From positions 684,522 through 748,521 of the forward strand of contig AP024680.1 in assembly GCA_025999275.1 (NCBI GenBank): a stretch of 64,000 nt of DNA, written 5' to 3'. Position numbers and translations under genes: made by a program. The DNA is from Patescibacteria group bacterium. Lineage in GTDB: Bacteria > Patescibacteriota > Microgenomatia > UBA8517. Shown in pieces: positions 7,400 to 35,760 of this stretch; the stretch's first letter is position 1; each line of letters begins with the position of its first letter. The notes under the pieces were generated by a model, which was given only the letters and a program-made list of their open reading frames with translations, was not told the DNA's origin and searched no databases.

Positions 7400-7448
7400 A
7401 CTTTAATTATATATTGTCTTGGCAAGTTGTTTTTGGTAGAATTGCGCT

Positions 7449-7634
7449 GTGGGAAAAATAATTGATTACCTTAAAGGAGTTCAACTAGAGCTCTCCAAAG
7501 TCACTTGGCCAAAAAAAGAAGAAACAATAAGATTAACTTTGACAGTAATTGTTTTTTCGGCTATAGTAGCAGGTTATGTGGGAGTTTTAGACTTCCTTTT
7601 TACAAGTTTATTAGCTAAAATCTTTACAAGATGA
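7449..7634 (+). CDS. secE: Preprotein translocase subunit SecE
   Basis: 61-aa protein with a single C-terminal TM, KGVQLELSKVTWP...TIRLTLTVIVFSAIVAGYVGVLD. It sits immediately upstream of nusG. The start is GTG 7449, only 6 nt after TAGAAT at 7437-7442. Confidence 0.8.
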   Translation: MGKIIDYLKGVQLELSKVTWPKKEETIRLTLTVIVFSAIVAGYVGVLDFLFTSLLAKIFTR

Positions 7635-8248
7635 CAAAAGCAAAAGAAGAAAAAAAAGAAGAACAAACACAAGATCAGCCAGTTAAAGTTGTAGGGCATT
7701 TTGTAATCAACAAAGAGGAAAATCCTCTTGCACGCTGGTATGTGGTTCACACTGCTTCAGGGCATGAAATGCGAGTTGCTGAGACCTTAAAACAAAGAGT
7801 TGAGTCAATGGGTTTTGAAAGAAATGTCTTTGAACTAATGGTCCCAACTCAAGACAGAGTCGTTATAAGAAGCGGTAAAAAATCGACTGTAAAAGAAAAG
7901 ATTCTCCCTGGTTATCTTTTGGTTAAAATGATTATGGATGATGCAACTTGGCTTGCTGTCAGAACCACCCCGGGAGTGACAGGATTTGTTGGTGCTGGCA
8001 AAAGTCCTACCCCATTAAGTGAAAAGGAAGTAGAAACCATTCTCAAATTTATCTCAACACCGGCAAAAAGGTTCAAAACCAGATTTTCAACTGGAGAGGC
8101 GGTCAAAATTGTCGACGGGCCATTTTCAGGATTCTTGGGTTCGATTAGCGAAATGGATGAAGAGCGTGGTAAAGTCAAAGTTTTGGTCTCCATCTTCGGC
8201 CGCGAGACTCCAGTCGAGCTTGATTTCTTGCAAATTCAAAAAGTCTAA
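7631..8248 (+). CDS. nusG: Transcription termination/antitermination factor NusG
   Basis: NGN and KOW domains: WYVVHTASGHE, GEAVKIVDGPFSGFLGSISEMD. Position secE-nusG-rplK. Confidence 0.9.
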   Translation: MTKAKEEKKEEQTQDQPVKVVGHFVINKEENPLARWYVVHTASGHEMRVAETLKQRVESMGFERNVFELMVPTQDRVVIRSGKKSTVKEKILPGYLLVKMIMDDATWLAVRTTPGVTGFVGAGKSPTPLSEKEVETILKFISTPAKRFKTRFSTGEAVKIVDGPFSGFLGSISEMDEERGKVKVLVSIFGRETPVELDFLQIQKV

Positions 8249-8654: not shown

Positions 8655-9569
8655 TCAAGGACCAGCCAATAACTTATCAACCGGAGGAAAAGGACCACAT
8701 GAATTTAAAACAGAAGCCTGCAACCCCATTTTTTCTAATCTTTTCAAAATACCTTGCCTATACCCTTCCAAATTCCCACTTTTGTATAGTGCAGTTATTT
8801 GTTTAACCTCGCCTTGCTCAGTTAAACCAAATATAATAGAAGCCACCCTTTTTGCACCAGGGACAGTTCTTGATTCAACTTCAACGGCTAGATATAAGGC
8901 ATGTGTACAACCCTCAATAATACCCGCTGCAGCCAAACAAATAATCTCTTTAGGCAAAGGAGAATTAGGCTGCAAGAAAGCGGCTTCAACTATAGTTTTT
9001 ATATACTCAGCAAGTTCAGGCCCCCTTCTTTCAATTGTATGTTTGTTCAACTCAATAAGTCTTAAAACTTCCGTACTTGATTTGGCAACGGCAATTGCAC
9101 TAGCGGTCCCAAGTAAAACTAACAGTGCTGTCTCACCAATAGGTGTAGGCTCAAGTAAAGCGGGTGGAGATCCCAGAGCAATAACACTTGCCAAAGAAGG
9201 ATCTAAATTATCTTTAACCAACTGACTTAGACTGGCAGGCAATTCTATAACCCTTTCTTCTCTTGGACCATAAGTTATTTGAACTTTATATTCTTTGGCC
9301 AAATCCTCTATACTGGGAAAATTAGAAGAAATAGCAATAGAAACATCGTCTCCTCCCAAAACACTCTCAACCTCTCTAAGGCTATTTTCCAATTTGTCTA
9401 TTGCTGTCGAAGTCTTTTTATCTAATGACGAAGACCCCGACAGGTTTTCTTCAGGCCTTTGCTGCTCAAATGCTTTAGGGGCACAACTAGCAACCAATGC
9501 AGCCCCACCAGTCAAAGCTAACAATTTCAAAAATTCTCTACGCGAGATTTTACTAATATTTTCTGACAT
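8655..9569 (-). CDS. Hypothetical secreted protein with twin-arginine signal
   Basis: N-terminus ISRREFLKLLALTGGAALVASCAP matches the Tat consensus S/T-R-R-x-F-L-K and ends in a lipobox-like ASC. Confidence 0.55.
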   Translation of the reverse strand: MSENISKISRREFLKLLALTGGAALVASCAPKAFEQQRPEENLSGSSSLDKKTSTAIDKLENSLREVESVLGGDDVSIAISSNFPSIEDLAKEYKVQITYGPREERVIELPASLSQLVKDNLDPSLASVIALGSPPALLEPTPIGETALLVLLGTASAIAVAKSSTEVLRLIELNKHTIERRGPELAEYIKTIVEAAFLQPNSPLPKEIICLAAAGIIEGCTHALYLAVEVESRTVPGAKRVASIIFGLTEQGEVKQITALYKSGNLEGYRQGILKRLEKMGLQASVLNSCGPFPPVDKLLAGP

Positions 9570-9770
9570 AAGCTTATTTCACCATCAATAAAATAATCAA
9601 ACACATTATAGGATGAATTATATCATATATTTCACTGGTGTCAAAAGCAATATTTATCAAAATATAATAAAACCACAGCTCATACTACCAAAAATAAATA
9701 CCTAATATATATCAAACTTTACATTTTCAAAAATAACATTTATAATCAAAATACCTCTGCATCAAAGTGT

Positions 9771-19882: not shown

Positions 19883-21028
19883 ATGCCCAATCAATATCCA
19901 AACCCATCAAATGAACCAACACAAGTAAGCGCAGATGAAATTGCTCTTAATTCTTCTGTTTCTATTAAACCACCAGATAGCGCATCTTTCAATCAAGAAC
20001 CACAAAACAACATCAACACCACTTCCTTTCCCCCACAAAATTCAGATAGCAATGGCAACAACAGCATAAAGAATAAAAAATCGCATACCAAAACAATTGT
20101 AGCTTCTATACTAGGAATTCTTTTACTTGCTGGTGGTGTTGGCGCTGGAACATTTTTGGTTAAACAAAGACAAGATATTAGAGAAAAAGCTGCACTACCC
20201 ACATGCGAACAAGAGGGAGGAAAATGTGTACCAGAATCCTATTATTGCACTGAAGGTAGTACAAGCGAATTTAGGTGTCCTACTGGTAAAAAATGTGGAT
20301 TCGGAGATTGTAGTCTACCCAAATCAACCCCTTCACCAATAAAAACAACAGAACCTAAACCAGAACCAACCAACCCGCCTTCGCTCTGCAACAGAGTTCC
20401 AACAAACCAAATAAGAAAAGAGTGGGGAAACACATTAACAATAACACAAGAAGATATCAATAAATGTAAAGCCGCCTGTCCAGATGGAGTAATCTGGGTA
20501 TCAAAATATAAGTGTGATGGTATAAACCTATCACAAGGATGCCAAGATAATGGAACCGTGCTAACATGGAACGCAAAAGCAGGTGACAGTTTTTCTGTTG
20601 GCACTTTAGATTGTGGCACAGTCCAAATAGATGCCGGGTGCAAAAATAGTGCAAACACTTATGGAAATGTTGCTTATCTTTCCACTTCTGCCAATGTGCC
20701 GTGTAATACCCCTGCCCCAACAAATCCTCCAATAGAAGAAACAACTCAGTGCTTAAACTTGAAAGTTTATGACACCAACTGGAACATTATCCCAAATAAC
20801 CTATTATCACAACTAAAACCTGGAGACAAAATCAGATTTGCCGCTAGTGGATCACCAGCAAACAAAATCGATAAAGCTAAATTTACAATAAATGGAGTTG
20901 AGACTCTCGAAATATCAAACAAAAAACCTGGTTCTGATGAATTCTATACTGAATACGAAATACCATCAGGTGTAAGAAGTTTCACAGTAACAGTAAAATT
21001 ACATCACATAACCTTGGGTTGGTTCTAA
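19883..21028 (+). CDS. Hypothetical membrane-anchored Cys-rich extracellular protein
   Basis: 381 aa. N-terminal low-complexity region, TM (IVASILGILLLAGGVGAG), then a domain with more than 20 Cys. Confidence 0.5.
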   Translation: MPNQYPNPSNEPTQVSADEIALNSSVSIKPPDSASFNQEPQNNINTTSFPPQNSDSNGNNSIKNKKSHTKTIVASILGILLLAGGVGAGTFLVKQRQDIREKAALPTCEQEGGKCVPESYYCTEGSTSEFRCPTGKKCGFGDCSLPKSTPSPIKTTEPKPEPTNPPSLCNRVPTNQIRKEWGNTLTITQEDINKCKAACPDGVIWVSKYKCDGINLSQGCQDNGTVLTWNAKAGDSFSVGTLDCGTVQIDAGCKNSANTYGNVAYLSTSANVPCNTPAPTNPPIEETTQCLNLKVYDTNWNIIPNNLLSQLKPGDKIRFAASGSPANKIDKAKFTINGVETLEISNKKPGSDEFYTEYEIPSGVRSFTVTVKLHHITLGWF

Positions 21029-21037
21029 CTTTTAAAG

Positions 21038-21547
21038 ATGGAAAAAAATAAAACAAAAATAACAATAGCAATAATTGGAATGCTTATATTGGCAAGTATT
21101 GCCATATTTATGGCAATAAGACTCTACCAATTAAGACAGTCTAGCGTCTCCCCAAATGCACCAGAAAGCAAACCAGAAGCAGCAGGCAACAATACAATTT
21201 CTTGCTCTACCCTCACATTTTCAATTTCAACACCCACCCCAACACCAACATCTACCCCAACCTTGACAAATACTCCAAGACCAACAAATTCTCCTACTCC
21301 CACAATAACACCAACTCCTACTTCAAGTGTTGTTCCCACAATAACACCAACTCCTACTTCAAGTATAAGACCCACAAACACTGCTACCCCAACTCCCACA
21401 AGAACACCAATCGTTCCAACTTCTATTAATCAACCAACTCCAACTCTAGAAGCCTCTCTCCCTGAAGCCGGAGTGTCTTGGCCAACTATCCTAGGTGTAG
21501 CTGGAGGTGCAATAATGCTGATTATATCATTGCTACTTGCCTTATAA
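21038..21547 (+). CDS. Pro/Thr-rich surface protein with C-terminal LPEAG + hydrophobic tail (sortase-signal-like)
   Basis: 169 aa. N-terminal TM, long (T/P)n linker, C-terminus [30 protein letters not shown]. Confidence 0.45.
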
Positions 21548-22931: not shown

Positions 22932-23924
22932 TTAATTGGGTAAGGAAACATTTATTTCCCAAGAAGGAATCCAAAGATCCTTGAAATCAATTCCCTCTTT
23001 AATTCCAACTGGATTTAGGCCCCTTTCAATAAGACCTTTAATAATTTTTTCAACAGCCAAAACATCACAATAACGCGTAGAGTGGCTAAGAACTATATCC
23101 CCATTTCTGGCACCTTTTACAACCCTAGAGACAGTTTTCTCAATCCCATCAAGACCGCCGCTTTCCAAACTCCAAATAACTGTTTGCATACCAAAGCAAG
23201 AGGCTACATCTACCACCATATTATTCCTACTCCCATACGGAGGTCTAAAAAAACGAACCTGATAGCCCGGCAAAATGTCCCAAGAAACCTCAAGAAAATG
23301 GCGAAGTTGCTCATAAACACCCTGTCTACCAAGCGAAGTCAACTCATCATGATTCCAACCATGACACCCTAAATCAAGACCTTTTGCCACAATCTCTCTG
23401 ACAATATCAGGATGCCTTTCTAACCACTCTCCTGTTATAAAAAAGGTGGCCTTAGCATTATATAGATTTAGTGCTTCCAATATCTGTCTAATGTTTTCTT
23501 CCTTTCCTCCATCATCATAAGTCAACATCACAACCGGCCGAGAAGTGTCACCTTTACTAATTACATGTTTTCTTAAAAATTCTTTATCCTCTTTGGTTAT
23601 AAGCGACAAATACTCATTAAGTGAATAACCTTCTAAACTAAAAATAAAATTCTGTTCGCTATTCTCAGAAGTTAAGTCTTTTGCTTCAATTGTTGTTTCT
23701 GTTGGAGTCAAAGTTTGTGTTGATGTTTTTGTGGGAGCAACTGTCGAGGTAGAAGTATTGTTAGGTTTAGGTGTTTCAGTAGAAATAGGATCACCTGTTT
23801 CAGCTGTTGAAGAAATTGATTCTAATGATTTATCAAGACCACAGGAAGCAGCACCCAAAGCAAGAAGTCCTAATCCCGCTTTTTTCAAGAATTCTCTTCT
23901 ACTAATTTTCCTTTCTGTACTCAC
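22932..23924 (-). CDS. Tat-signal lipoprotein with polysaccharide deacetylase (CE4/NodB) domain
   Basis: Shared N-terminal module (V)STERKISRREFLKKAGLGLLALGAASCG. C-terminal LTYDDGG...HGWNHD motifs of NodB-type deacetylases. Start taken as GTG 23924, as in the paralogs. Confidence 0.65.
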   Translation of the reverse strand: MSTERKISRREFLKKAGLGLLALGAASCGLDKSLESISSTAETGDPISTETPKPNNTSTSTVAPTKTSTQTLTPTETTIEAKDLTSENSEQNFIFSLEGYSLNEYLSLITKEDKEFLRKHVISKGDTSRPVVMLTYDDGGKEENIRQILEALNLYNAKATFFITGEWLERHPDIVREIVAKGLDLGCHGWNHDELTSLGRQGVYEQLRHFLEVSWDILPGYQVRFFRPPYGSRNNMVVDVASCFGMQTVIWSLESGGLDGIEKTVSRVVKGARNGDIVLSHSTRYCDVLAVEKIIKGLIERGLNPVGIKEGIDFKDLWIPSWEINVSLPN

Positions 23925-23934
23925 AGTAACTGGT

Positions 23935-23963
23935 ATTATAGGATATTTATCAAATCCAATCAA
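23935..23963 (-). promoter_or_regulatory. TTGATT-17-TATAAT promoter, 10 nt upstream of the GTG start (near-leaderless)
   Basis: Minus-strand read: ttgatt ggatttgataaatatcc tataat accagttact GTG. The same arrangement occurs at 34057-34085 and 35407-35435 for the paralogs. Confidence 0.5.
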
Positions 23964-24001: not shown

Positions 24002-24544
24002 CTACCTTCTCTCAAGGATTAAGACACAATTGTGGGTTATAAAACTACAACTACTATCTATGCAGGAACCTTCAAAAGCAAGTTTGTCTTTTCCATTACT
24101 ATTTTTTAAAAACTCTAAAACCTTTTCAAATAACTCTGTCCTTTGTATAAAATCCTTACCTTCAGGTAATTGATAACTAGAAAAGACAATATTTTCACAA
24201 GCTATATTACTATTAAAAATTTCTCCTTTTAAGTTCTCGGGAGAAATCACTCTTAAAGAAAGTGCAGTATTATCGTTCTGAACCCCCAAAATCTCAAATC
24301 TTAAAACATCGTCCATACCAATTTGATTCTCGGAAGATGGGGGCTGTGTACCTTGAGAATATTGAATGTTTTGAGAAGATTCTTCTTTTTTAACCAATTG
24401 AGTATTATTAGAGCTCTCCCCCTCACCCCTATTAGTTCCTAGTGAATTATTGTTCTTCTTTAGATTAAAATACAAAAACAACTCTCCCACCACAATCAAA
24501 AACAATGAAAAAAATAAAGCTATTAAAATAAAGTTTTTCTTCAT
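24002..24544 (-). CDS. Small secreted 4-Cys protein (paralog of 32403-32972)
   Basis: 180 aa. N-terminal TM, Ser/Gln-rich linker, C-terminal domain I.C...ELFxK..FL.....L.F.G.C.D..C..I...C.L shared with the paralog. Confidence 0.5.
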   Translation of the reverse strand: MKKNFILIALFFSLFLIVVGELFLYFNLKKNNNSLGTNRGEGESSNNTQLVKKEESSQNIQYSQGTQPPSSENQIGMDDVLRFEILGVQNDNTALSLRVISPENLKGEIFNSNIACENIVFSSYQLPEGKDFIQRTELFEKVLEFLKNSNGKDKLAFEGSCIDSSCSFITHNCVLILERR

Positions 24545-24715
24545 TTACAATAAAGTTTAGTATTATAAATAATAATTTACAATGTTAATAGCCAAAATTG
24601 CAATAACTTCAAAGATAGATATCTTTCTTTTAAACCATCACCCTGCATAATTTCATATCTCAAAAAGACAATCGGAAAAAATCAAAATTAAAAACTTACA
24701 AATTTATATTCATTA

Positions 24716-26318
24716 TTTCCCTCTTCTTTAATAAAAGATTGTTTTAATTAATTTAATATAGGAGGAGTTGGTCCTGGAATAAAACCTCCTGGTGGTAGAG
24801 TTGGAGCTACGGGCACATCTGGAGGAAGAGTCGGTCTAGGAGTTGGTGTTGCTGGAGAAATTTCTTGGGGATTGGTTTCTCTCCAGTTGAACCTTCTTTC
24901 TTTAAGACTATTTGGTATTTGAAAAACAAAAGATGGATTAAAATTAAACACCTCAGATGGGTTGTTGTTGTCTGTAAGAGATCTTTGTAGTCTCACTCCT
25001 GAAAGAGAAACTACAGAACCATTAACATTAAGGGCAAAAGTATCCTGTCTTGAACCTAAAGTGCCTGTATTAAATGTTCCATTGGTTAGATAAATTCCTG
25101 ATATTGAAGAAACACTGGGGGAAATACTAATATTACCACTTGTTATAAACATTAAGAAATTGTTGCTGTTAACATTAATATTTGAATTTATGTTCAAATT
25201 TCCATCTACGAAGATTACATACCTTCCGCTTGAGATATTTATAGGACCATTGATAGTTAGACTACCTTGATTTAGACTATTCTTTTTGATTAGATACCAA
25301 GAATAGTTGTCACTGGTTGATATTGAGGGATTACCAAGATTGCTAAGAGAAGTTATGGATATATTACCTGATGTTACACCTACATTATTATTTTCCCAAT
25401 CATTTTTTACTCCTGATGGGACACGATTAAAGAAATAATTGTAATTAAAATTACTAAAAGATGAAATATCAGTATTAACAAGCCAACCGGTTTCAGAGAC
25501 TCTTCCAGCACCAAAAGAGAAAGATCCAGAATATACAGGAATACCAGGGGTAATAGCTCCTACTCTAAGATTAAAGTAGGTAGTTTGAGTGGGCAAAATA
25601 GATGAAATATTACCTCTTGTTATTACATCAGCGTTGTTAACCTGCCACCAAGAGCGAGGAATTATAGTTACATTCCCAGTTGCTTGACAGGTAAAACTAG
25701 GATTGGATGAAACAGTAGCAATTGCATTATATGTATAAGTACCTGTACCAGTTGTTGCTGTAACAGTAGTTGTAAAAGGAGATGTGGAAGTTGTTGAGGG
25801 ATTAAAGCTTAAAGCAGAAGAGTTGGAAGGAGTAAAAGATATTCTTGATATGTTCCCCACCAAATTAATTACTTGAGGAGGTGTCAAAATAGATGGCGTA
25901 ATTGTTCTAGAATCACCTAATCCATTAAGGGTTATGCTACCAACTGAAATTTGACAAGGTAAAAAGTAATGCCACCAAAGATCAGTATATCCATTAGCAG
26001 GAGAATTAACATTAACAGAAGAACCAACTGTAGGAGGATTACCATGACAATTGGTGGCGTTATAACATAAAGTATAACCTACAGCATATCCTGAAGGAAC
26101 TGAGACACTAACTGTATGATTTCCAACCACATTAGTACCAACAAAATAGTAAGGATTATTGGTATTAGGAGAACCGCCATCCAAATATACTGTTTGAGAG
26201 GAAGCCGGAGATGCAGCTGCATTACCAGGATAAATTACCTTGTAACCTTGAATGGTTGATGTTGGAGGAGGAGGTGTAGGTGTAGGGTCTGGTTGGCTTC
26301 CGCCTCCCCCACCACCAC
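24716..26318. repeat. Copy 1 of a ~1.6-kb near-identical direct repeat (partner at 30472-32096)
   Basis: Identical by eye from tttccctcttctttaataaaag to ggcttccgcctcccccaccaccac, apart from one synonymous change (gatgtgg vs gacgtgg near 25781/31539) and an 18-bp indel in the Pro/Thr-linker repeats. Confidence 0.9.
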
Positions 26319-26649
26319 AATCACAAGCAACAACTTGTGTATCACGAATATATCCATCACAACAAACCTGATTTTTATAACAACCGGGCGGCCTTACATT
26401 ATCATAATAAAGACATGGACCATTATCACACCAATTAGTACAACTATTGCTAACCGACCATGCACAAACGGGAGGGTCAACACTCCTATTACAAGTATAA
26501 GTACAATGACTATAACCATCACAACAAGATGCGCAATCGCTATAAGAAGAACAATAATAAGAGCATGCTGCTAAAGACAAAGAAGAAAAACTAAAAGAAA
26601 ATAAATAAAAACAAACAAATATGAGACAGAAATATAAAAACTTACGCAT
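24748..26649 (-). CDS. Large secreted surface protein: variable Cys-rich N-domain + conserved Ser/Thr/Asn-rich beta-rich domain + Pro-rich tail
   Basis: 633 aa. Signal peptide, ~85-aa domain with ~18 Cys, G6-SQPxPTP linker, then ~520 aa identical to the paralog 30504-32393 (NISITS/NGNISISP-type repeats suggest a beta-helix), ending PATPTPRPTLPPDVPVAPTLPPGG. Confidence 0.6.
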   Translation of the reverse strand: MRKFLYFCLIFVCFYLFSFSFSSLSLAACSYYCSSYSDCASCCDGYSHCTYTCNRSVDPPVCAWSVSNSCTNWCDNGPCLYYDNVRPPGCYKNQVCCDGYIRDTQVVACDCGGGGGGSQPDPTPTPPPPTSTIQGYKVIYPGNAAASPASSQTVYLDGGSPNTNNPYYFVGTNVVGNHTVSVSVPSGYAVGYTLCYNATNCHGNPPTVGSSVNVNSPANGYTDLWWHYFLPCQISVGSITLNGLGDSRTITPSILTPPQVINLVGNISRISFTPSNSSALSFNPSTTSTSPFTTTVTATTGTGTYTYNAIATVSSNPSFTCQATGNVTIIPRSWWQVNNADVITRGNISSILPTQTTYFNLRVGAITPGIPVYSGSFSFGAGRVSETGWLVNTDISSFSNFNYNYFFNRVPSGVKNDWENNNVGVTSGNISITSLSNLGNPSISTSDNYSWYLIKKNSLNQGSLTINGPINISSGRYVIFVDGNLNINSNINVNSNNFLMFITSGNISISPSVSSISGIYLTNGTFNTGTLGSRQDTFALNVNGSVVSLSGVRLQRSLTDNNNPSEVFNFNPSFVFQIPNSLKERRFNWRETNPQEISPATPTPRPTLPPDVPVAPTLPPGGFIPGPTPPILN

Positions 26650-26706
26650 GAAAGTTGCAAGATCAGCTTATTACAAGAAAATTTTATAGTCAATAGTCAA
26701 ATGAAG

Positions 26707-28356
26707 CTAATTTTTGGGTTTAATATCTCTTTGACGAAAAGGATTCCAAGGAGAAATAAATGCTAAAAGCAGCTGATTTCCTAATTCTTCTGGAGCCTTA
26801 TTTTCATTAAACCATTGTTGACAAAGAGTTCTTCTTTTTTGCACCTCTTCTTCATTCCGGTAATGTGTATTTATCATATACCCTTCGTACCTATTATAAT
26901 CATACCAATTATATGTTTTTCCATTATAAGCTGGCGAAACACCAATTAAAGGGTCAATCCTAACTTTAAAATTAGCCAGGGCAGAAACCATATTTAAAAC
27001 AAAAGGATCTTCGTAATTCTCAAAAGCAAAATGCAATATTGAAATACTTTTGTCTGGATTAAGAAAAGCAACTCCATATACTAAAAGTCTTGTTTCAGAA
27101 TCTACATCAACAAAGGATAAAGATAGAAGTCTAAAAGGAACAGCTTCAGGGTGATCAAGAAAGTAATCAGATATAATAGGATCGCCTGTAACAGGATCAG
27201 GAAGAAGAGCATGGATCCCTTCTATAAAACTATAATCATAATAATCCATGAGGTTTGGGGGTATTGTAGATTCAGTAAAAGGAGGAATTTTACCCTCCTC
27301 CATTAATTGTCTTTCTCTTTTAAGAAGCCTGCCTGAGGTAATGTCTTCTAATGAAATTGTAGGGATTTCTTTAAGATGTTCACCGAGCCTCCAATTACCA
27401 GATTCTATTCCACTGAAATTGTAAAATACTTCAAGAGGAACTTCTGTAGGAGTTGGTGTTTCTGTTGGTCTTGGTGTTGGAGTAAGTGTAGGAATGGGGG
27501 TAGGGATTTCAATAGTTACTGTTGGAGTAACGGTTGTAATATCTGGTGTAACAACTGCAGATGAAGCTTCTTGAGACTGGTTTTGATAAATAGTGGTTGA
27601 CTTTTCAACTATTGCAGGAGGTTGAGATAAAGGAACACATCCTGATAATACAGATGAAACAACTGAGGCTGCAAGAAGAACTCTTCGAGGATTTCTTTTT
27701 CCATCTTTTTCTTCCTCTGGTATTGCAAAATGAGCTATTCCTCTTCCTCCTTCTGTTGAAAGCTTTTCTCGATGAGAGACTATTTTATTTACTGCCCTTT
27801 GTAAATTGCATAATTCTCTTGACAAGGCTTGCGGGTCAACTTTTCTTTCTTGTTGATAACTTGATAAAAGTAAATTCAATATTCTAGAAACACCTTTTTT
27901 GTAATCAACTCTAATGATTCCCTCAATCTCTCCTAAATGCCTTTTGTCATCAGGATTATCACCCCAAGGTTTTCCATTCATTCCCTCAATTCCAACAACA
28001 CCAACAGTTAATTTTATTTTCTTTCCATCAACAATATTAGATTTAGATTTGTTAAATGATTCTAAAGCTCTACCAATTCTTCGCCCCAGAAGATAATCTA
28101 TTTCTTCTTTTGTGTAAACTTCATGAAGATAACTTGATCTTTCAGACTTAGTACTCCTTTTGGATTCAGCATCTTGATCTTCTTTGGGCAAACCCGCTAA
28201 ACCTCGAAGAAAAGGCTTTATTCTGCTTAAATCACCTCTTTTTTCTCCCCCTTGTTTTTCATTTTCAATTGAATTTAAGACATCAATAGCCCAATTGGAG
28301 ATTTCACTTGATCTTCCACCTGCTTCCAAACCATTTTTGATTAATTCTATTGACAT
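26707..28356 (-). CDS. Hypothetical bitopic membrane protein (cytoplasmic N-domain, TM, Thr/Pro linker, extracellular domain)
   Basis: 549 aa. TM at RRVLLAASVVSSVLSGCV. No family recognised. Confidence 0.5.
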   Translation of the reverse strand: MSIELIKNGLEAGGRSSEISNWAIDVLNSIENEKQGGEKRGDLSRIKPFLRGLAGLPKEDQDAESKRSTKSERSSYLHEVYTKEEIDYLLGRRIGRALESFNKSKSNIVDGKKIKLTVGVVGIEGMNGKPWGDNPDDKRHLGEIEGIIRVDYKKGVSRILNLLLSSYQQERKVDPQALSRELCNLQRAVNKIVSHREKLSTEGGRGIAHFAIPEEEKDGKRNPRRVLLAASVVSSVLSGCVPLSQPPAIVEKSTTIYQNQSQEASSAVVTPDITTVTPTVTIEIPTPIPTLTPTPRPTETPTPTEVPLEVFYNFSGIESGNWRLGEHLKEIPTISLEDITSGRLLKRERQLMEEGKIPPFTESTIPPNLMDYYDYSFIEGIHALLPDPVTGDPIISDYFLDHPEAVPFRLLSLSFVDVDSETRLLVYGVAFLNPDKSISILHFAFENYEDPFVLNMVSALANFKVRIDPLIGVSPAYNGKTYNWYDYNRYEGYMINTHYRNEEEVQKRRTLCQQWFNENKAPEELGNQLLLAFISPWNPFRQRDIKPKN

Positions 28357-28491
28357 AGATTAAATAAAAGCAGTGTTTATATAGCTATTAGATACTATTA
28401 TAGGCTAATATTAAAAATTGTCAATACCGCCACAAGTATAATTAAACTATCAAAAGCAAACACCACTATTACTTATCCTTAATCACCAAAA

Positions 28492-29289
28492 TCAAAAAGA
28501 TATTTCAGTGCCAGTCTTGAAATTAGATTTTGTAATAGATTTATAGAGGTTGTCTTTGATTTTTCCGTTCATAATATAAACCTTTGTTCCTCCTTTGGCC
28601 ATCTTTAAACTTTCCACTACTTTATGTAACATTCCACCAGTTACATCCGTGTTCTCTGATCCAAAAATAGATTTTCTGAGAATAGGAAAATTTTTAGGAG
28701 TAATCCTTTTTATAACTTTCCCCTTTTCATCGTAAACACCATCAGTAACCCCGCATTGAATAACCTTCTTTACCCTGTATCCTTTTTCCTTAAATTTGCT
28801 AAATAAATTATCAAGAACCTCTTCTCCAGAATAAATACAACAACCATATTTATCATCCAAAATAACATCCCCAAAAACCACTGGAACAATACCCATCTCA
28901 ACGGCTTTAATAATAGGTTCTACAAAAATAGATTTAAGAGATTTAGCTTGCGCAAAAATAAAAGAAGATGGAACAAAAGAAAGGCAATTAATCCCTTTAT
29001 TCAAAAACACCTTATTAACTATCCTATTTATAGCAATCGCATCCTGCTCAACAAGGCACAAACCCCTAATCCCCCTTTTATCTTTTATTCCATCGGCTGT
29101 TTTATACTTACTGGCCAGGGTATGACCAAAAGAACCACTCCCATGAGACACAACCAAATGGAAACCAAGATCCAAAGACTTTTTAATTTCTAACGCCAAA
29201 CGGTTAATAACCCTAATACGAGGAGTATAAGGCTTGCTTTTATCTGTAATTAAACTACCGCCAAGTTTAATAAAAACTAAATCAAACAT
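28492..29289 (-). CDS. Isopentenyl phosphate kinase (amino-acid-kinase fold)
   Basis: FIKLGGSLITDK, HGSGSFGH, GDVILDDKYG, TDVTGGM match archaeal-type IPK motifs. Start taken at MFDL, since the ORF-track start 29328 would overlap the upstream gene. Confidence 0.75.
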   Translation of the reverse strand: MFDLVFIKLGGSLITDKSKPYTPRIRVINRLALEIKKSLDLGFHLVVSHGSGSFGHTLASKYKTADGIKDKRGIRGLCLVEQDAIAINRIVNKVFLNKGINCLSFVPSSFIFAQAKSLKSIFVEPIIKAVEMGIVPVVFGDVILDDKYGCCIYSGEEVLDNLFSKFKEKGYRVKKVIQCGVTDGVYDEKGKVIKRITPKNFPILRKSIFGSENTDVTGGMLHKVVESLKMAKGGTKVYIMNGKIKDNLYKSITKSNFKTGTEISF

Positions 29290-29299
29290 AAAAGGTTGG

Positions 29300-30370
29300 C
29301 TAGTAAGAACGATTGGTAATAAAATCAACCAAGGTTAAAATGTAAGAACGATATGGTTCAAGGCGAATGAAGTCAAGATGCTGATCAAAATAATCCCTAG
29401 ATTTTTGTTTCCACTTTAAGGCGAGATCTTTTGCATAATCAATTGCACCATATTCTTTCATCATTTTCACAACCCATAGAACCTCATCTTCAGTTTTTTC
29501 CTCCCTACTTTTTCTCAAAATAGAAATAAGTTTCTTTTTATCGCTCAACGAAGCTTTTTTCAAAAGATACCCTAAAATAACTGTAACTTTCCCCTCATAA
29601 ACATCTCCTGCAAATTCCTTTCTACCACCAAAATCACTTGTAACATCAAGAATATCATCTGTTAACTGAAACGCACGCCCTAGATAAACACCAAACTTAG
29701 CCAATTTATCAAGCTGCTGATTATTACCATCGGCAATTATTGCCCCCAGTCTCATTGGGCAGGCAATTGTGTAATAAGAAGTCTTGCCATCAGCCACAAA
29801 ATACCAATCATTATCATCAAATTCCATCCTTTTATCTTTTGACCATCTTATCTCTGTCATCTGTCCTAAAGTCGTACGCATAAGCTGAGTGTAAAATTCA
29901 TTAAGGATCCTAAAAACCTTTTCTTCATCTAAAAATCTACGCGAATCAAAAAGCGCCCTCCACATGGCAACATGAAGCGCATCTCCTGCATTAACTGCCA
30001 AAGGGATGTTGTAAATTTTATGCAAAGAAGGAAACCCTCGCCTTTTAGGAGAATCATCTTCCAAATCATCATGAATTAAAAGCCACTCCTCTGAAATCTG
30101 CATAGCCGAAGCTACAGGAACAACATCTTCAAGTTTAGCTCCCATCGCCTGAGCAGTTAGAGATAAAAGTGTAGGCCTCAGGTACTTTCCTTTTCTTTTA
30201 GGATACTCAGAAATTATCTCCTGGAAAAAATTTTTTTCACTATCATATTTACTCGGAATCTTAAATGATGACGGAAACATAGGAGTTTTTAGATATCTCA
30301 AAACTCTTGGGTAAATAAAGTCACGATAGTAAGAAAGAATCCCCTCAGCAGATTTTAGCTCTTTCGCCAT
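29300..30370 (-). CDS. Trans-isoprenyl diphosphate synthase (polyprenyl synthetase family)
   Basis: First Asp-rich motif LIHDDLEDDSPKRRG and second motif FQLTDDILD. Confidence 0.8.
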   Translation of the reverse strand: MAKELKSAEGILSYYRDFIYPRVLRYLKTPMFPSSFKIPSKYDSEKNFFQEIISEYPKRKGKYLRPTLLSLTAQAMGAKLEDVVPVASAMQISEEWLLIHDDLEDDSPKRRGFPSLHKIYNIPLAVNAGDALHVAMWRALFDSRRFLDEEKVFRILNEFYTQLMRTTLGQMTEIRWSKDKRMEFDDNDWYFVADGKTSYYTIACPMRLGAIIADGNNQQLDKLAKFGVYLGRAFQLTDDILDVTSDFGGRKEFAGDVYEGKVTVILGYLLKKASLSDKKKLISILRKSREEKTEDEVLWVVKMMKEYGAIDYAKDLALKWKQKSRDYFDQHLDFIRLEPYRSYILTLVDFITNRSY

Positions 30371-30471
30371 TTTTAAATTATAAACACAAAAAATATATAA
30401 GGCAAGAAAAACTAAATATTTAATTTAGTAATTTTAAATTAACTTTAGATATCAAACACTTAAACCAAAAA

Positions 30472-32096
30472 TTTCCCTCTTCTTTAATAAAAGATTGTTT
30501 TAATTAATTTAATATAGGAGGAGTTGGTCCTGGAATAAAACCTCCTGGTGGTAGAGTTGGAGCTACGGGCACATCTGGAGGAAGAGTCGGTCTAGGAGTT
30601 GGTGTTGCTGGAGAAATTTCTTGGGGATTGGTTTCTCTCCAGTTGAACCTTCTTTCTTTAAGACTATTTGGTATTTGAAAAACAAAAGATGGATTAAAAT
30701 TAAACACCTCAGATGGGTTGTTGTTGTCTGTAAGAGATCTTTGTAGTCTCACTCCTGAAAGAGAAACTACAGAACCATTAACATTAAGGGCAAAAGTATC
30801 CTGTCTTGAACCTAAAGTGCCTGTATTAAATGTTCCATTGGTTAGATAAATTCCTGATATTGAAGAAACACTGGGGGAAATACTAATATTACCACTTGTT
30901 ATAAACATTAAGAAATTGTTGCTGTTAACATTAATATTTGAATTTATGTTCAAATTTCCATCTACGAAGATTACATACCTTCCGCTTGAGATATTTATAG
31001 GACCATTGATAGTTAGACTACCTTGATTTAGACTATTCTTTTTGATTAGATACCAAGAATAGTTGTCACTGGTTGATATTGAGGGATTACCAAGATTGCT
31101 AAGAGAAGTTATGGATATATTACCTGATGTTACACCTACATTATTATTTTCCCAATCATTTTTTACTCCTGATGGGACACGATTAAAGAAATAATTGTAA
31201 TTAAAATTACTAAAAGATGAAATATCAGTATTAACAAGCCAACCGGTTTCAGAGACTCTTCCAGCACCAAAAGAGAAAGATCCAGAATATACAGGAATAC
31301 CAGGGGTAATAGCTCCTACTCTAAGATTAAAGTAGGTAGTTTGAGTGGGCAAAATAGATGAAATATTACCTCTTGTTATTACATCAGCGTTGTTAACCTG
31401 CCACCAAGAGCGAGGAATTATAGTTACATTCCCAGTTGCTTGACAGGTAAAACTAGGATTGGATGAAACAGTAGCAATTGCATTATATGTATAAGTACCT
31501 GTACCAGTTGTTGCTGTAACAGTAGTTGTAAAAGGAGACGTGGAAGTTGTTGAGGGATTAAAGCTTAAAGCAGAAGAGTTGGAAGGAGTAAAAGATATTC
31601 TTGATATGTTCCCCACCAAATTAATTACTTGAGGAGGTGTCAAAATAGATGGCGTAATTGTTCTAGAATCACCTAATCCATTAAGGGTTATGCTACCAAC
31701 TGAAATTTGACAAGGTAAAAAGTAATGCCACCAAAGATCAGTATATCCATTAGCAGGAGAATTAACATTAACAGAAGAACCAACTGTAGGAGGATTACCA
31801 TGACAATTGGTGGCGTTATAACATAAAGTATAACCTACAGCATATCCTGAAGGAACTGAGACACTAACTGTATGATTTCCAACCACATTAGTACCAACAA
31901 AATAGTAAGGATTATTGGTATTAGGAGAACCGCCATCCAAATATACTGTTTGAGAGGAAGCCGGAGATGCAGCTGCATTACCAGGATAAATTACCTTGTA
32001 ACCTTGAATGGTTGATGTTGGAGGAGGAGGTGTAGGGTCTGGTTCTGGTTCTGGTGTGGGTTGGCTTCCGCCTCCCCCACCACCACTATACCTACT
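30472..32096. repeat. Copy 2 of the ~1.6-kb direct repeat
   Basis: See 24716-26318. Offset between copies is 5756 bp. Confidence 0.9.
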
Positions 32097-32393
32097 TTCA
32101 CAACTGGTATCGCATGCAAAAGTATGGGAATAATAACCTGGGCCCCCATTACAAAGCAAATAATGCTCGTAATAATTATAATAGGTTCTCCCATAACAAC
32201 CTTGGCCATTTTGATTGTTATAGCATACTTCTTCGGGTAATCTTGAACCGCAATATAGCATAGGATCTGATGTCCTCCAACAAGTCGCCCAGACATCTTT
32301 AATAGTCAAGAATGAAAAAGTAGCAAACAAAAACAAAATAAGATAAATTCTCAAAAACAAATTTGACAAAATTGTTTTTTCTTTGTATTTCAT
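30504..32393 (-). CDS. Large secreted surface protein, paralog with a different Cys/Tyr-rich N-domain
   Basis: 629 aa. The N-terminal ~110 aa (WATCWRTSDPMLYCGSRLPEEVCYNNQNGQGCYGRTYYNYYEHYLLCNGGPGYYSHTFACDTSCESRYS) is unrelated to copy 1. The rest is identical. Confidence 0.6.
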   Translation of the reverse strand: MKYKEKTILSNLFLRIYLILFLFATFSFLTIKDVWATCWRTSDPMLYCGSRLPEEVCYNNQNGQGCYGRTYYNYYEHYLLCNGGPGYYSHTFACDTSCESRYSGGGGGGSQPTPEPEPDPTPPPPTSTIQGYKVIYPGNAAASPASSQTVYLDGGSPNTNNPYYFVGTNVVGNHTVSVSVPSGYAVGYTLCYNATNCHGNPPTVGSSVNVNSPANGYTDLWWHYFLPCQISVGSITLNGLGDSRTITPSILTPPQVINLVGNISRISFTPSNSSALSFNPSTTSTSPFTTTVTATTGTGTYTYNAIATVSSNPSFTCQATGNVTIIPRSWWQVNNADVITRGNISSILPTQTTYFNLRVGAITPGIPVYSGSFSFGAGRVSETGWLVNTDISSFSNFNYNYFFNRVPSGVKNDWENNNVGVTSGNISITSLSNLGNPSISTSDNYSWYLIKKNSLNQGSLTINGPINISSGRYVIFVDGNLNINSNINVNSNNFLMFITSGNISISPSVSSISGIYLTNGTFNTGTLGSRQDTFALNVNGSVVSLSGVRLQRSLTDNNNPSEVFNFNPSFVFQIPNSLKERRFNWRETNPQEISPATPTPRPTLPPDVPVAPTLPPGGFIPGPTPPILN

Positions 32394-32402
32394 AATTTAT
32401 TA

Positions 32403-32972
32403 CTAAGGCAAACTAAGATAACAATCCCTGTTTATCTCCTCACAATTATTATCACCACAAAGACCAAAAAATAAAATGGGCTCGCCTAACGATCCTTGTA
32501 GATAGAGTTTAATTTTTGTAAATAGTTCAGATTTATTTATACTCGTTAAGTTTTCACTGGAACGAGATTTAAGTTTTATGTCTGAATCTGCACAGGTTAT
32601 TTTACTTTCAAACATTCTACCTTCCCATGAATTGGGCCAAACTACAATTAACCCAAGGGTTTCTTTTTCAGTATTTACTGACTCGACTTTAAAAACTGCA
32701 GAATTTACAGAAGGATTAAAATTAGTAGTCAACTCAGCTGGAAGCGGAAGTGGTTCTGCTGATGGTGTAGGTTCTTGGTTTGATAAAGCTACTTTATTAT
32801 TACTGCTACTACTATCAGGCTTTCTTAAAACTAAATTGGGAAAACCATTTAGACGAACAAAAAACAGTAATTCAACAACAATCACTAAAGCTAAGACAAC
32901 AAGCACACCTACCAAAATACCAGAAGTTTTACTCATCAATATCAGATTAGAAAAGAATTCCTTGTCTGTCAA
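32403..32972 (-). CDS. Small secreted 4-Cys protein (paralog of 24002-24544)
   Basis: 189 aa, TM + linker + C-terminal ...TCADSDIKL...ELFTKIKLYLQGSLGEPILFFGLCGDNNCEEINRDCYL. Confidence 0.5.
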   Translation of the reverse strand: MTDKEFFSNLILMSKTSGILVGVLVVLALVIVVELLFFVRLNGFPNLVLRKPDSSSSNNKVALSNQEPTPSAEPLPLPAELTTNFNPSVNSAVFKVESVNTEKETLGLIVVWPNSWEGRMFESKITCADSDIKLKSRSSENLTSINKSELFTKIKLYLQGSLGEPILFFGLCGDNNCEEINRDCYLSLP

Positions 32973-32981
32973 GAATGAATT

Positions 32982-34046
32982 TCACTTATTCTCAGAAAAA
33001 TTATTAGAAGAATCGGGAGAAAAAATAACACCACCAATTTGGTTTCCAACTCTCTTAAACGAGACGTAATTCAACAATGAGTAAAGATCTTCTCCTGACA
33101 TCCCAACTAAAAATGCCAAACTCTCATAAGAAGAATCAAAAGGGCCTTCAGGTTTAATTTGACTATTCGGATAAACTATAAAAACAAAATTATCGGGATA
33201 AACAGGATATTTTTTATTATCTTTTACACCACAAAAAAATGATAGAATAAAGTTGCCCAATTTCTCACCTTTTGGGTCATAAACGGTAATGGAAATGCCG
33301 CCTGTACGATCAGTTAAATTAGCACTAAACAAAAACTCAGATAAATAATAGCCAGTACCATTTTTATAATCTCTAGTTATATGTTGTTGCAACCATCTAT
33401 CATAAAAACTTATACTTGGAAAAGTTTCTAAAGGAGTTCCATCTACTTTAATGGCATATTCAACCAGCCTAGTAAAAGCCTCAACATAAGCCTCCATTTT
33501 ACCCTCCTCATCCAAAGTTTCCGAAATTAAAAAGGCCGGAAACTCTTTTCTTTGCAAAGCTCCATCCTCTTCTTCATAAACCACCTCTATAATTCCACCC
33601 TCCCAAGGTCTTTTAAATTCATTGCCATCATATACATACCATGCCCATTTTTCTTTGGTGTCATCACGATAGATAATTAGTTCAGGATTTATGGCACTGA
33701 TACTACCCTTCTTGAAGGTTCGTCCATCTTCTGCAGTGTAAGTTTCAGGAGCTAGTCGAAAACGCTCTTCAGGAGTAATTGAATGCCAATCTACAGGAGT
33801 TGGGGTTTCTGTTGGTGTAGGAGTTGGTGTTTCTGTAGGTTTAGCTGTTGGTGTAGGTGTTTCTGTAGGTGTAGGAGTATTGTTAGGTTTAGGTGTTTCA
33901 GTAGAAATAGGATCACCTGTTTCAGCTGTTGAAGAAATTGATTCTAATGATTTATCAAGACCACAGGAAGCAGCACCCAAAGCAAGAAGTCCTAATCCCG
34001 CTTTTTTCAAGAATTCTCTTCTACTAATTTTCCTTTCTGTACTCAC
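32982..34046 (-). CDS. Tat-signal lipoprotein paralog B (unknown C-terminal domain)
   Basis: GTG start. N-terminal 151 aa identical to paralog C. SRREFLK twin-arginine motif, LAASCG lipobox, Thr/Pro linker. Confidence 0.55.
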   Translation of the reverse strand: MSTERKISRREFLKKAGLGLLALGAASCGLDKSLESISSTAETGDPISTETPKPNNTPTPTETPTPTAKPTETPTPTPTETPTPVDWHSITPEERFRLAPETYTAEDGRTFKKGSISAINPELIIYRDDTKEKWAWYVYDGNEFKRPWEGGIIEVVYEEEDGALQRKEFPAFLISETLDEEGKMEAYVEAFTRLVEYAIKVDGTPLETFPSISFYDRWLQQHITRDYKNGTGYYLSEFLFSANLTDRTGGISITVYDPKGEKLGNFILSFFCGVKDNKKYPVYPDNFVFIVYPNSQIKPEGPFDSSYESLAFLVGMSGEDLYSLLNYVSFKRVGNQIGGVIFSPDSSNNFSENK

Positions 34047-34343
34047 AGTAACTGGTATTATAGGCTACTTATTATATTGGGTCAAATAGGTGTAAAATTA
34101 TACAAAATTTAACCAATTATTTTAAATTTGGCATAAAATTGCAAAATTTAAGGAAAGGATTAAATGAAATTATAAGAGAAATAATACTTTACTTTTTAAT
34201 ATTTGGAATACACAAAGTTTTTGACTATGATAAAAGTAAATTCTTGAATCAAAAACAAGTGGTATACAAAATCAATATGATAAATTAAGAAATCTTAAAA
34301 ATCATTTTTAATTTACAAAAACAAGACAATTGTCAATAAATTA

Positions 34344-35396
34344 CTAAGGTTTTGGTTGAGAATCTGAAGTAAAAGACTGCAACTCCAATGCACTTAAACC
34401 TATATAATCAATTAAAGACTCAAGGTCTTTTCCTGAAACACCAACTAAGAAAGCTACGTCTAAATCAGAAGGAAGAAATTCTCCTTCTCCCCCTCTCAAC
34501 CAGTAACTACCATTGGGATAATAAATACGTACAAACTTATAAGGGTACACAGGGTTTAGATTGTTTTCTGACACACCGTGAGACATAAGAAGAATAAATT
34601 TCCCCACCTTCTCTCCATGAAAAGAAACAGTAAATGAAGATCCAATTATCAAATCTAATGGTGGATGATTAACAAAGTTTTCAGGACCCAATCTACCATC
34701 TTTAACAAAAGAATCTAAGTTGGATTTTTTCGTAAGAAAATTATTATTAAAATCAAGAGAATCTTTGAAAAAAAGTGGGGTATGACTTTTATTAACCCCA
34801 TATTCGATAAGTTTTATTAGAGCCTCAATTGTCGCTTGTTTTTTCTCATCATCACTAGCATCATCTTGTAGATAAACCATAAAAGCAGGACCTTCTAGTC
34901 TTTCCAAAGTTCCATCACCTCTACGAAAAACCATTTCTAAAACCCCACCCTCCCAAGGTCTTTTAAATTCATTGCCATCATATACATACCATGCCCATTT
35001 TTCTTTGGTGTCATCACGATAGATAATTAGTTCAGGATTTATGGCACTGATACTACCCTTCTTGAAGGTTCGTCCATCTTCTGCAGTGTAAGTTTCAGGA
35101 GCTAGTCGAAAACGCTCTTCAGGAGTAATTGAATGCCAATCTACAGGAGTTGGGGTTTCTGTTGGTGTAGGAGTTGGTGTTTCTGTAGGTTTAGCTGTTG
35201 GTGTAGGTGTTTCTGTAGGTGTAGGAGTATTGTTAGGTTTAGGTGTTTCAGTAGAAATAGGATCACCTGTTTCAGCTGTTGAAGAAATTGATTCTAATGA
35301 TTTATCAAGACCACAGGAAGCAGCACCCAAAGCAAGAAGTCCTAATCCCGCTTTTTTCAAGAATTCTCTTCTACTAATTTTCCTTTCTGTACTCAC
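34344..35396 (-). CDS. Tat-signal lipoprotein paralog C (C-terminal domain homologous to but diverged from B)
   Basis: First 469 bp including the promoter are identical to B (33595-34062 vs 34945-35412). The C-terminal halves share GEK(L/V)G(N/K)FIL...NPVYP...AFLVG(M/V)SG(E/K)DL(Y/E)SL. Confidence 0.55.
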   Translation of the reverse strand: MSTERKISRREFLKKAGLGLLALGAASCGLDKSLESISSTAETGDPISTETPKPNNTPTPTETPTPTAKPTETPTPTPTETPTPVDWHSITPEERFRLAPETYTAEDGRTFKKGSISAINPELIIYRDDTKEKWAWYVYDGNEFKRPWEGGVLEMVFRRGDGTLERLEGPAFMVYLQDDASDDEKKQATIEALIKLIEYGVNKSHTPLFFKDSLDFNNNFLTKKSNLDSFVKDGRLGPENFVNHPPLDLIIGSSFTVSFHGEKVGKFILLMSHGVSENNLNPVYPYKFVRIYYPNGSYWLRGGEGEFLPSDLDVAFLVGVSGKDLESLIDYIGLSALELQSFTSDSQPKP

Positions 35397-35509
35397 AGTA
35401 ACTGGTATTATAAGATATTTATTATACTAGGTCAAGTAAAAATAAGACAAATAAACCCATACCCGCTTAAAATTACAAATACACAGGGTCAAAAGACAAC
35501 TTGAAAAGA

Positions 35510-35760
35510 CACCTTGAGGGTGTACTAGCTTGGCACCTAACTGATTAACTCAAAAGTCAAAAGGCAAAACTCAAAATTACAATTCAAAATTTAAAAATAT
35601 TTAATTAAATTTAATTAAGGAAAACTTTTGACTTTTAACTTGTAGTTTTGACTTTTGAATTTTAACTTTTGAATTATTTTTATTCATAAATTATAAATCT
35701 TAAACCTATATTCCTTTCCCCTTCCTATCAGCACTGGCTACTGTTTTTAAAGTTTAGATA
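35510..35760. repeat. Partial copy of the MITE-like element family (internal AT-rich hairpin part)
   Basis: caccttgagggtgtactagcttggcacctaactgattaactcaaaagtcaaaaggcaaaactcaaaa...tttgacttttgaattttaac is near-identical to 52225-52400. Confidence 0.45.

Follow-up and report, generated by a model that had tools for sequence, protein, structure and literature searches.

Two genes for secreted proteins in a Patescibacteria group bacterium raise the question of how a segment of 1.6 kb can be practically the same in both when the parts in front of it are unrelated. The genes, bigA and bigB, were found in a stretch of 64,000 nucleotides (assembly GCA_025999275.1, contig AP024680.1, positions 684,522 to 748,521), which has a GC content of 36.9% and is referred to here as the window. 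The N-terminal domain that follows the signal peptide is called the head (head A in bigA, head B in bigB) and the shared remainder the body. The best explanation of the whole, which we hold to be quite probable, is that paralogous surface genes reside in cassettes of their own, that their bodies are homogenised by recurrent gene conversion, and that alleles of heads and partner genes are exchanged.

The repeat and its behaviour in three lineages

The bounds of the repeat were set by self-BLASTN and MAFFT alignment within the window. The two copies are direct repeats, with bigA and bigB both on the minus strand. From the 3' boundary to the linker (~1566 nt) they differ at a single position (25783 T versus 31539 C), and this substitution is synonymous (Thr, ACA/ACG). 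In the Pro/Thr linker, a net indel of 12 nt (four codons, SQPDPTPTPPPP in copy A versus SQPTPEPEPDPTPPPP in copy B) is accompanied by five adjacent mismatches. Identity starts 33 nt past the stop codon and ends just after the codons of a GGGGGGS linker, spanning the last 523 residues of bigA and the last 527 of bigB. Chance cannot account for a match of 1.6 kb at 99.9% identity, and purifying selection is not the cause, because synonymous sites and the 33 nt of non-coding flank are identical too. A preliminary description of the locus had reported that the last ~520 residues and the 3' flank of two ~630-residue proteins are encoded by near-identical segments (24716-26318 and 30472-32096) with one synonymous difference. 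The alignment agrees, except that copy B ends at 32086, 10 nt short of 32096, and that the linker indel is not the 18 bp given there.

The heads gave no detectable homology in a sensitive profile comparison (hhalign, probability 0.08%), as the same description had claimed. It had set 18 Cys in the N-terminal part of bigA against a Cys/Tyr-rich set in bigB; the first 111 residues of bigA do contain 18 Cys, but two of these lie inside the signal peptide, leaving 16 in the mature head.

Three lineages in which both paralogs are represented could be compared: the window; a syntenic JGI contig (L001) that carries both paralogs; and a pair of contigs that supply a head-A gene (L024) and a head-B gene (L003). 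The UPPS, helix-turn-helix (HTH), polyprenyl synthase (PPS) and WecG proteins of L001 are 84%, 92%, 67% and 65% identical, respectively, to those of the window. Its paralogs are arranged in tandem, a 624-aa head-A gene and a 665-aa gene whose head includes a head-B-like part, and their bodies have 1760 nt in common at 96.1% identity, of which ~280 nt lie past the stop. L024 and L003 have 1604 nt in common at 98.1%. The C-terminal solenoid domains of A and B are 100%, 99.2% and 99.3% identical within the three lineages; between these lineages the identity is 52-59%, and 36-59% when all loci compared are taken together. Head A, on the other hand, is 65-84% identical between lineages (L001, L024, L025, L002), and head B 45-55% (homologs P0043, L003). 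Bodies group by genome and heads by type in all three lineages. The first body domain also follows the genome: the types found in the window (IQGYKV...DLWWHY) and in L001 (GYFDYVDP...GWTCDPD) are non-homologous (BLASTP E 1.2), and each is common to both paralogs of its genome.

As judged from these comparisons, the split between A and B is apparently older than the divergence of the three lineages, and the bodies appear to have been homogenised repeatedly since. The clustering of bodies by genome and heads by type supports the gene conversion or cassette exchange that had been suggested on first reading. The accompanying picture, in which the heads vary and the body stays constant, is for the most part reversed over longer evolutionary times, where head A is the most conserved part and the body diverges fast, even exchanging a domain type between lineages.

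In L001 and L024/L003, differences between the paralog bodies are confined to the 5' half (92-94% identity, synonymous divergence dS 0.06-0.09, ratio of nonsynonymous to synonymous divergence dN/dS 0.56-0.9), and the last 800-900 nt and the flank are 100% identical; homogenisation is most complete at the 3' end in both. In the mechanism that we propose, the body, which extends from the linker to slightly beyond the stop, would be kept near-identical within a genome by recurrent non-reciprocal homologous recombination (gene conversion), presumably dependent on RecA. On the 5' side the conversion tracts would end because homology ends there, the heads being unrelated. A crossover between the A and B copies of the window would delete the genes for PPS and isopentenyl-phosphate kinase (IPK), so that only conversion products should persist.

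Both L001 copies have the same in-frame TAA after WREVAP, followed by an intact Pro-rich reading frame of 53 codons (L001 11654-11818 and 15788-15952) that is homologous in kind to the translated tail of the window proteins. The TAA could be a nonsense mutation that arose recently and was spread by conversion, or a site of stop-codon readthrough.

Partner genes and the exchange in strain L034

The two paralogs differ in the genes that accompany them. An unk549-like gene stands directly before the head-A gene at seven loci (window, L001, L002, L024, L025, L029, L030), and a lipoX-like gene together with a small 4-Cys gene stands before the head-B gene at three (window, L001, L003), both as detected with tblastn. 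These conserved partners, unk549 and lipoX, had been passed over in the preliminary description. Cassette A consists of unk549, the head-A gene behind it and a small protein; cassette B runs from a lipoprotein through a small 4-Cys membrane protein to the head-B gene. Their placement varies relative to a conserved backbone (MreB, WecG, HTH, PPS, deacetylase, UPPS, a 7TM-transglutaminase-like protein and ATP-grasp): in L001 they follow UPPS in tandem, and in the window they are split apart by the PPS and IPK genes. BLASTP of unk549 against lipoX1 gave no similarity in the C-terminal domains, and a search for fusions (Rosetta-stone) of the small domain, unk549 or lipoX to members of the solenoid family returned transmembrane or low-complexity matches only. 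In the window and L029, unk549 is encoded by a single open reading frame (ORF). Its L001 counterpart comes in two pieces, a 175-aa cytoplasmic part and a 312-aa lipoprotein (7366-7893 and 8830-9768), with a small 4-Cys gene between them.

The small proteins, smallA and smallB, are 28% identical (BLASTP E 1e-7) and have four invariant Cys. They had been taken for secreted homologs adjoining the big genes; homology, Cys content and adjacency were found as described, but an N-terminal transmembrane helix in each makes them membrane-anchored and not freely secreted, and they lie on opposite sides of the big genes. The AlphaFold2 model of smallB shows a transmembrane helix and a small, unspecific OB-like beta-barrel. 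The family search gave three database matches only; either the family is very narrow or its members have diverged too far for the word index to pick them up. That the small proteins are cognate partners of the big ones, a further suggestion of the first reading, gains support from the kept linkage and from the co-variation described below, a single event that may reflect linkage alone. We infer that the head is a specificity determinant and acts with the membrane-anchored small protein, perhaps also with the ectodomains of unk549 and lipoX.

At the 90% level, bigA and bigB cluster with one further protein (P0170, taken from a Logan assembly), whose contig, L034, holds the 3' end of lipoX1, smallB, bigB, PPS and IPK contiguously. 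L034 is 100% identical to the window over 33254-32655 and 31954-28555; between these segments lies a hypervariable patch (Table 1). The last 60 codons of smallB show 12 amino acid changes with the 4 Cys kept (dS 0.26, dN 0.09), and the bigB signal peptide shows six nonsynonymous changes (dS 0.29, dN 0.07). Head B is reduced to ~45% amino acid identity with all 7 Cys kept (dS 1.07, dN 0.45), and an indel is present in the linker. The body has one amino acid change (dS 0.013, dN 0.002). The ratio dN/dS is below 1 in the patch. The high dS together with the indels indicates that a divergent allele was imported by homologous recombination and did not arise by local hypermutation; for such exchange of head and partner between strains, homology arms could have been provided by the homogenised body and by the 5' portion of the small gene, which is conserved. 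Head B and the C-terminal domain of smallB were altered jointly, in one recombination event. This is the best evidence so far that the two work together, with the proviso that a single event could also be explained by physical linkage alone.

Synteny between L034 (4743-5112) and the window (28357-28491) is lost directly after IPK, where L034 has an unrelated spacer of ~290 nt and then a gene that starts with the shared TAT/lipobox (twin-arginine translocation) module. Cassette A (window 24002-28356) is therefore missing from that site, which seems to point to a strain-level presence/absence or rearrangement polymorphism. Since the Logan contig is unbroken through the body, it suggests a single body copy in the L034 strain. 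For a more distant strain, the contigs L026 and L027 both start 82 nt inside the repeat, just upstream of smallA, as would be explained by a repeat at that site.

Predicted architecture and the solenoid family

The signal peptides of bigA and bigB are of the Sec type. The predicted order of parts is a disulfide-rich head, a Gly/Pro-Thr linker, two Ig-like stalk domains, a beta-solenoid resembling that of ice-binding proteins (IBP), and a Pro-rich tail. The AlphaFold2 model of bigA, computed from a 14-sequence alignment, has a mean predicted local distance difference test score (pLDDT) of 70.7, with values of 80-97 at residues 400-580, and consists of two beta-sandwich domains followed by a beta-solenoid. 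By fold comparison, the stalk domains match Ig-like modules of adhesins, Gram-positive pilins and S-layer proteins. The C-terminal domain is predicted to be a right-handed beta-solenoid with an accompanying alpha-helix, the arrangement that characterises the IBP-1/DUF3494 fold; a beta-helix had been anticipated for the body in the preliminary description, and the fold comparison bears this out.

Sequence matches were sparse. Pfam DUF7305 matched over 50 residues only and below threshold (19-19.4 bits against a gathering threshold of 27, E ~1e-3), and similarly weak matches occurred in 4 of 10 members of the solenoid family. DUF3494 was not matched at E ≤ 0.1 by whole proteins or at E ≤ 1 by ten domain sequences, and sequence and profile searches of the PDB gave chance matches only. 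The heads had no Pfam match at E ≤ 1 and contain no known toxin domain. The LPxTG-type sortase motif [LIV]Px[TSA]G was present in none of nine proteins, which end in WxExxP or in a Pro-rich tail, and no SLH domain was found in bigA or bigB. We take bigA and bigB to be two anciently separated paralogs that encode a modular, adhesin-like surface protein secreted by the Sec pathway, which would form cell-surface or extracellular fibres with the disulfide-rich heads as specificity modules.

An exhaustive search with a profile of the C-terminal domain retrieved 7266 cluster representatives at E ≤ 1e-3, of which 1307 at E ≤ 1e-30. Motifs and Cys were counted in the best 150 of the 7266. The WxExxP motif stands at most three residues from the C-terminus in 145 of the 150, and the prepilin motif G[FYW][TS][LIV][IVLP]E occurs in the first 50 residues of none; at least 10 Cys are present in residues 21-220 of 100 of the 134 Met-starting members. 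In the family layout a signal peptide is followed by a Cys-rich head, then by a variable stalk and the C-terminal IBP-like solenoid; the 39-residue Pro-rich tail of bigA and bigB is an exception to it. The genomes that carry the family belong mainly to Microgenomates-type members of the candidate phyla radiation (CPR), namely Woese-, Shapiro-, Levy-, Davies- and Roizmanbacteria. Four members (P0027, P0036, P0047, P0050) have a Hint/intein-like segment (CFPAGTK...HPLFT...LAHNKG) between head and stalk, as judged by eye and regular expression. Seven family contigs (L003, L004, L007, L010, L017, L019, L020) come from metagenome-assembled genomes (MAGs) labelled Brocadiaceae, Gammaproteobacteria or Pseudomonadales; the remaining titled loci with the solenoid family are CPR bins. 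For L003 mis-binning is likely, since it shares the gene cassette of the CPR window.

Table 1. Positions of bigA, bigB, their predicted parts, the repeat and the partner genes in the window.
Feature	Position	Strand	Basis or remark
bigA (633 aa; BCX15047.1, KatS3mg088_730)	24748-26649	minus	ORF list and exact cluster match
bigA signal peptide	26569-26649	minus	
Head A (aa 28-111, 84 aa, 16 Cys)	26317-26568	minus	after signal peptide
Two predicted beta-sandwich (Ig-like) stalk domains, bigA aa ~126-333	25651-26274	minus	bigB counterpart 31407-32018
Predicted C-terminal IBP-like beta-solenoid, bigA aa 334-594, WRETNP end	24868-25650	minus	bigB counterpart 30624-31406
39-aa Pro-rich C-terminal tail, bigA	24751-24867	minus	bigB counterpart 30507-30623; unusual in solenoid family
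bigB (629 aa; BCX15051.1, KatS3mg088_734)	30504-32393	minus	ORF list and exact cluster match
bigB signal peptide	32286-32393	minus	
Head B (aa 37-103, 67 aa, 7 Cys, 11 Tyr)	32085-32285	minus	after signal peptide
Repeat copy A, bigA body and 33 nt of 3' flank	24715-26318	minus	1604 nt; BLASTN 99.07% over 1616 columns against copy B
Repeat copy B, bigB body and 33 nt of 3' flank	30471-32086	minus	1616 nt; BLASTN/MAFFT
Hypervariable patch (smallB last 60 codons, bigB signal peptide, head B, linker)	31955-32650	minus	strain level; ~700 nt, 54-94% identity against L034
smallA, membrane-anchored 4-Cys protein	24002-24544	minus	203 nt downstream of bigA; ortholog P0168 in L026 and L027
smallB, membrane-anchored 4-Cys protein	32403-32972	minus	9 nt upstream of bigB; orthologs adjoin head-B genes in L003 and L001
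unk549, membrane or lipoprotein-like	26707-28356	minus	upstream of head-A genes (tblastn)
lipoX1, TAT/lipobox protein	32982-34046	minus	upstream of smallB and bigB; TIGR01409 TAT signal
lipoX2, tandem paralog of lipoX1	34344-35396		

Alternatives, known systems and neighbouring elements

The explanation by recurrent conversion and allele exchange draws directly on the repeat itself, the difference between within- and between-genome identity, the linkage in cassettes, the allele replacement in L034 and the fold. That one real gene had its body duplicated or collapsed by the assembler is very improbable, even though near-perfect identity over 1.6 kb in assembled sequence and the breaking of relatives' contigs at or near the repeat (L003, L024, L026, L027) would fit such an artefact. 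The copies are told apart by one base and a 12-nt indel, by their heads and by their unique flanks, and the L001 pair, at 96% identity, shows differences that no assembler would invent. Moreover, L034 independently assembles smallB, bigB, PPS and IPK contiguously, the join from the 3' end of bigA through smallA to PDA is assembled in L026 and L027, and orthologous head-A and head-B genes with their own partners occur in independent assemblies. Recent whole-gene duplication in each lineage, followed by head replacement and without ongoing conversion, is compatible with the high within-genome identity taken alone. It would require three independent events, each gaining the same two head types and each time the same type-specific partners (unk549 with A; lipoX and small with B), and for A and B alike, heads as well as partners already appear to coalesce before the lineage splits. 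The graded identity in L001 and L024/L003 (3' half 100%, 5' half 92-94%) fits repeated conversion tracts instead, and we regard such duplication as quite unlikely.

As for the variation in head B and smallB, targeted hypermutation, for example by a diversity-generating retroelement (DGR), would suit its tight localisation, and DGRs are common in CPR bacteria. It was rejected as scarcely credible: the patch contains indels, its dS reaches 1.07 and its substitution spectrum is mixed and not adenine-specific, and neither a template-repeat copy of the patch region in the window nor the reverse-transcriptase signature Y[AVILMC]DD in window ORFs of at least 200 aa was found. A different function, which would leave the gene-conversion mechanism untouched, is that the heads are secreted polymorphic toxin or bacteriocin-like modules, with the small proteins as outward-facing immunity proteins and the body as delivery scaffold. 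Such a function would fit the finding that, in a strain identical elsewhere, the head-B allele was replaced jointly with the C-terminal domain of smallB; it would also fit the conserved linkage of small and big genes, the small, disulfide-rich heads and the apparent presence or absence of cassette A between strains. We nevertheless find it rather doubtful, given the lack of a detectable toxin domain in the heads (Pfam, E ≤ 1), the N-terminal and not C-terminal position of the variable module, the strong conservation of head A (65-84%), which is unlike typical polymorphic toxins, the dN/dS below 1 in the exchanged patch, the position of smallA downstream of bigA across a 203-nt gap, and the unspecific OB-like barrel of the small protein. 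A broader and still speculative possibility, taken as one with its parts, is that head B (possibly also head A) and the outward domain of the small protein form a polymorphic lock-and-key pair for recognition or as effector and immunity, and would set the host or kin specificity of these episymbiotic CPR bacteria. The homogenised body would then be a shared chassis and a recombination landing pad for swaps of heads and partners between strains and paralogs, and the WxEVAP-ended IBP-like solenoid a major unrecognised surface-display module of Microgenomates with more than 7000 clusters.

Several points weigh against homogenised, adhesin-like paralogs with cognate partners as the account of the locus. 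L003 and L024 come from different samples, and their treatment as one genome is an assumption for that lineage. Short-read assemblers can over-homogenise repeats, so that the true within-genome identity could be slightly lower. Tandem family paralogs in the more distant L004, L007 and L013 are not homogenised, and the process is therefore specific to the clade of the window. No small-protein gene was found beside the head-A genes on the short contigs L002, L024 and L025. Pfam and NCBIfam gave no match above threshold for the big and small proteins, the partners or each isolated domain, and the head model is of low confidence (pLDDT 56-68). Finally, either end of bigA and bigB may be the one that faces the cell.

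The outer-membrane adhesin paralogs of the bab and hom families of Helicobacter pylori offer a comparable case, reportedly described by Pride and Blaser in 2002. In babA/babB and homA/homB the 3' segment is under concerted evolution (PMC3960876). As in that system, the 3' segments of the surface genes are closer within a strain than between strains, intragenomic gene conversion leaves the 5' ligand-binding parts distinct, and alleles or loci are exchanged between strains. The family and envelope are unrelated, however, with neither a beta-barrel nor an outer membrane here; the present heads are wholly non-homologous, each paralog has its own conserved partner genes, and the homogenised body changes its domain composition between lineages. 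In fold, the solenoid resembles the IBP-1/DUF3494 ice-binding proteins and the beta-solenoid of Thermus thermophilus ComZ (PDB 3wp9, 5uyt, 6bg8, 6qvi; PMC6561018). ComZ has the IBP fold, and its authors drew no functional insight from that resemblance (PMC6561018). Unlike these proteins, the present family has no sequence match to DUF3494, and its solenoid is not inserted in a pilin but is always at the extreme C-terminus with a WxE(V)xP end; the absence of a prepilin signal (0/150) and the Sec-type signal peptides of bigA and bigB further separate it from ComZ-like type IV minor pilins. Gram-positive modular adhesins with Ig-like stalks (SraP, the BcpA and Spy0128 pilins, the S-layer protein SbsC) are similar in build, but here LPxTG and SLH are lacking and the C-terminal module is a beta-solenoid. 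Polymorphic toxins such as Rhs/CDI carry their variable module C-terminally. With these loci, and with the kin-recognition genes TraA/TraB of Myxococcus, the window shares the exchange, between near-identical strains, of a localised polymorphic module together with part of an adjacent small gene; it differs in that the part that varies is at the N-terminus, neither a toxin nor a PA14 domain was detected, conservation is found in head A, and the partner is a predicted outward-facing, membrane-anchored protein.

Concerted evolution of surface-protein paralogs is a known type of process and, as a mechanism, not surprising. What is new is an unannotated family of more than 7000 clusters, the organisation in two cassettes with unrelated heads, the inverted expectation of a conserved head A and a fast-evolving yet homogenised body, and the evidence of active intragenomic and inter-strain recombination in a CPR genome of 0.79 Mb. 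Literature searches for the KatS3mg088 MAG and for gene conversion or DUF3494 in CPR bacteria yielded no description of the locus. CPR bacteria, or Patescibacteria, are thought to live attached to host cells by surface molecules that are largely unknown. The locus provides a concrete candidate pair for such attachment, from a large unannotated family, and indicates that a genome of this size keeps duplicated surface genes and actively recombines them, by intragenomic conversion and inter-strain allele exchange. The distinction between conserved (head A), polymorphic (head B and its small partner) and fast-evolving but homogenised (body) parts can guide tests of ligand, partner and anchoring. 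With a putative function, the locus is a well-supported, instructive case and an entry point to the surface biology of CPR bacteria.

Other repeated elements were observed around the cassettes. A 202-nt module encoding a TAT-like signal and lipobox (STERKISRREFLKKAGLGLLALGAASCG...) occurs at 23749-23950, 33871-34072 and 35221-35422 with 98-99% identity; its carriers, a polysaccharide deacetylase, lipoX1 and lipoX2, are otherwise different. In L026, a relative at ~90-94% identity, the deacetylase copy of the module is only ~80% identical to the lipoX copies of the window, and the comparison suggests a second, recent local gene conversion. The lipoX1 and lipoX2 genes are 96.7% identical over the 5' 538 nt (33549-34085 versus 34899-35435) and have diverged C-terminal halves, the mirror image of bigA and bigB. 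An AT-rich palindromic element of ~130 nt (window ~35530-35665), with an RNA fold of -46.5 kcal/mol (z -5.2), borders cassette B in the gap that separates lipoX2 from the HTH gene. It has a second copy ~17 kb away (52214-52401) and an inverted partial copy at 52631-52710, and may be similar to repetitive extragenic palindromes or miniature inverted-repeat transposable elements (REP/MITE-like). On the plus strand, a 169-aa Pro/Thr-rich protein with LPEAG and a hydrophobic tail (21038-21547) has the look of a sortase substrate and adjoins a 381-aa Cys-rich secreted protein (19883-21028); neither gene has a homolog in the syntenic L001 locus. Another direct repeat, ~300 nt long and 82% identical, is formed by 61092-61390 and 62296-62593, close to where the window ends.

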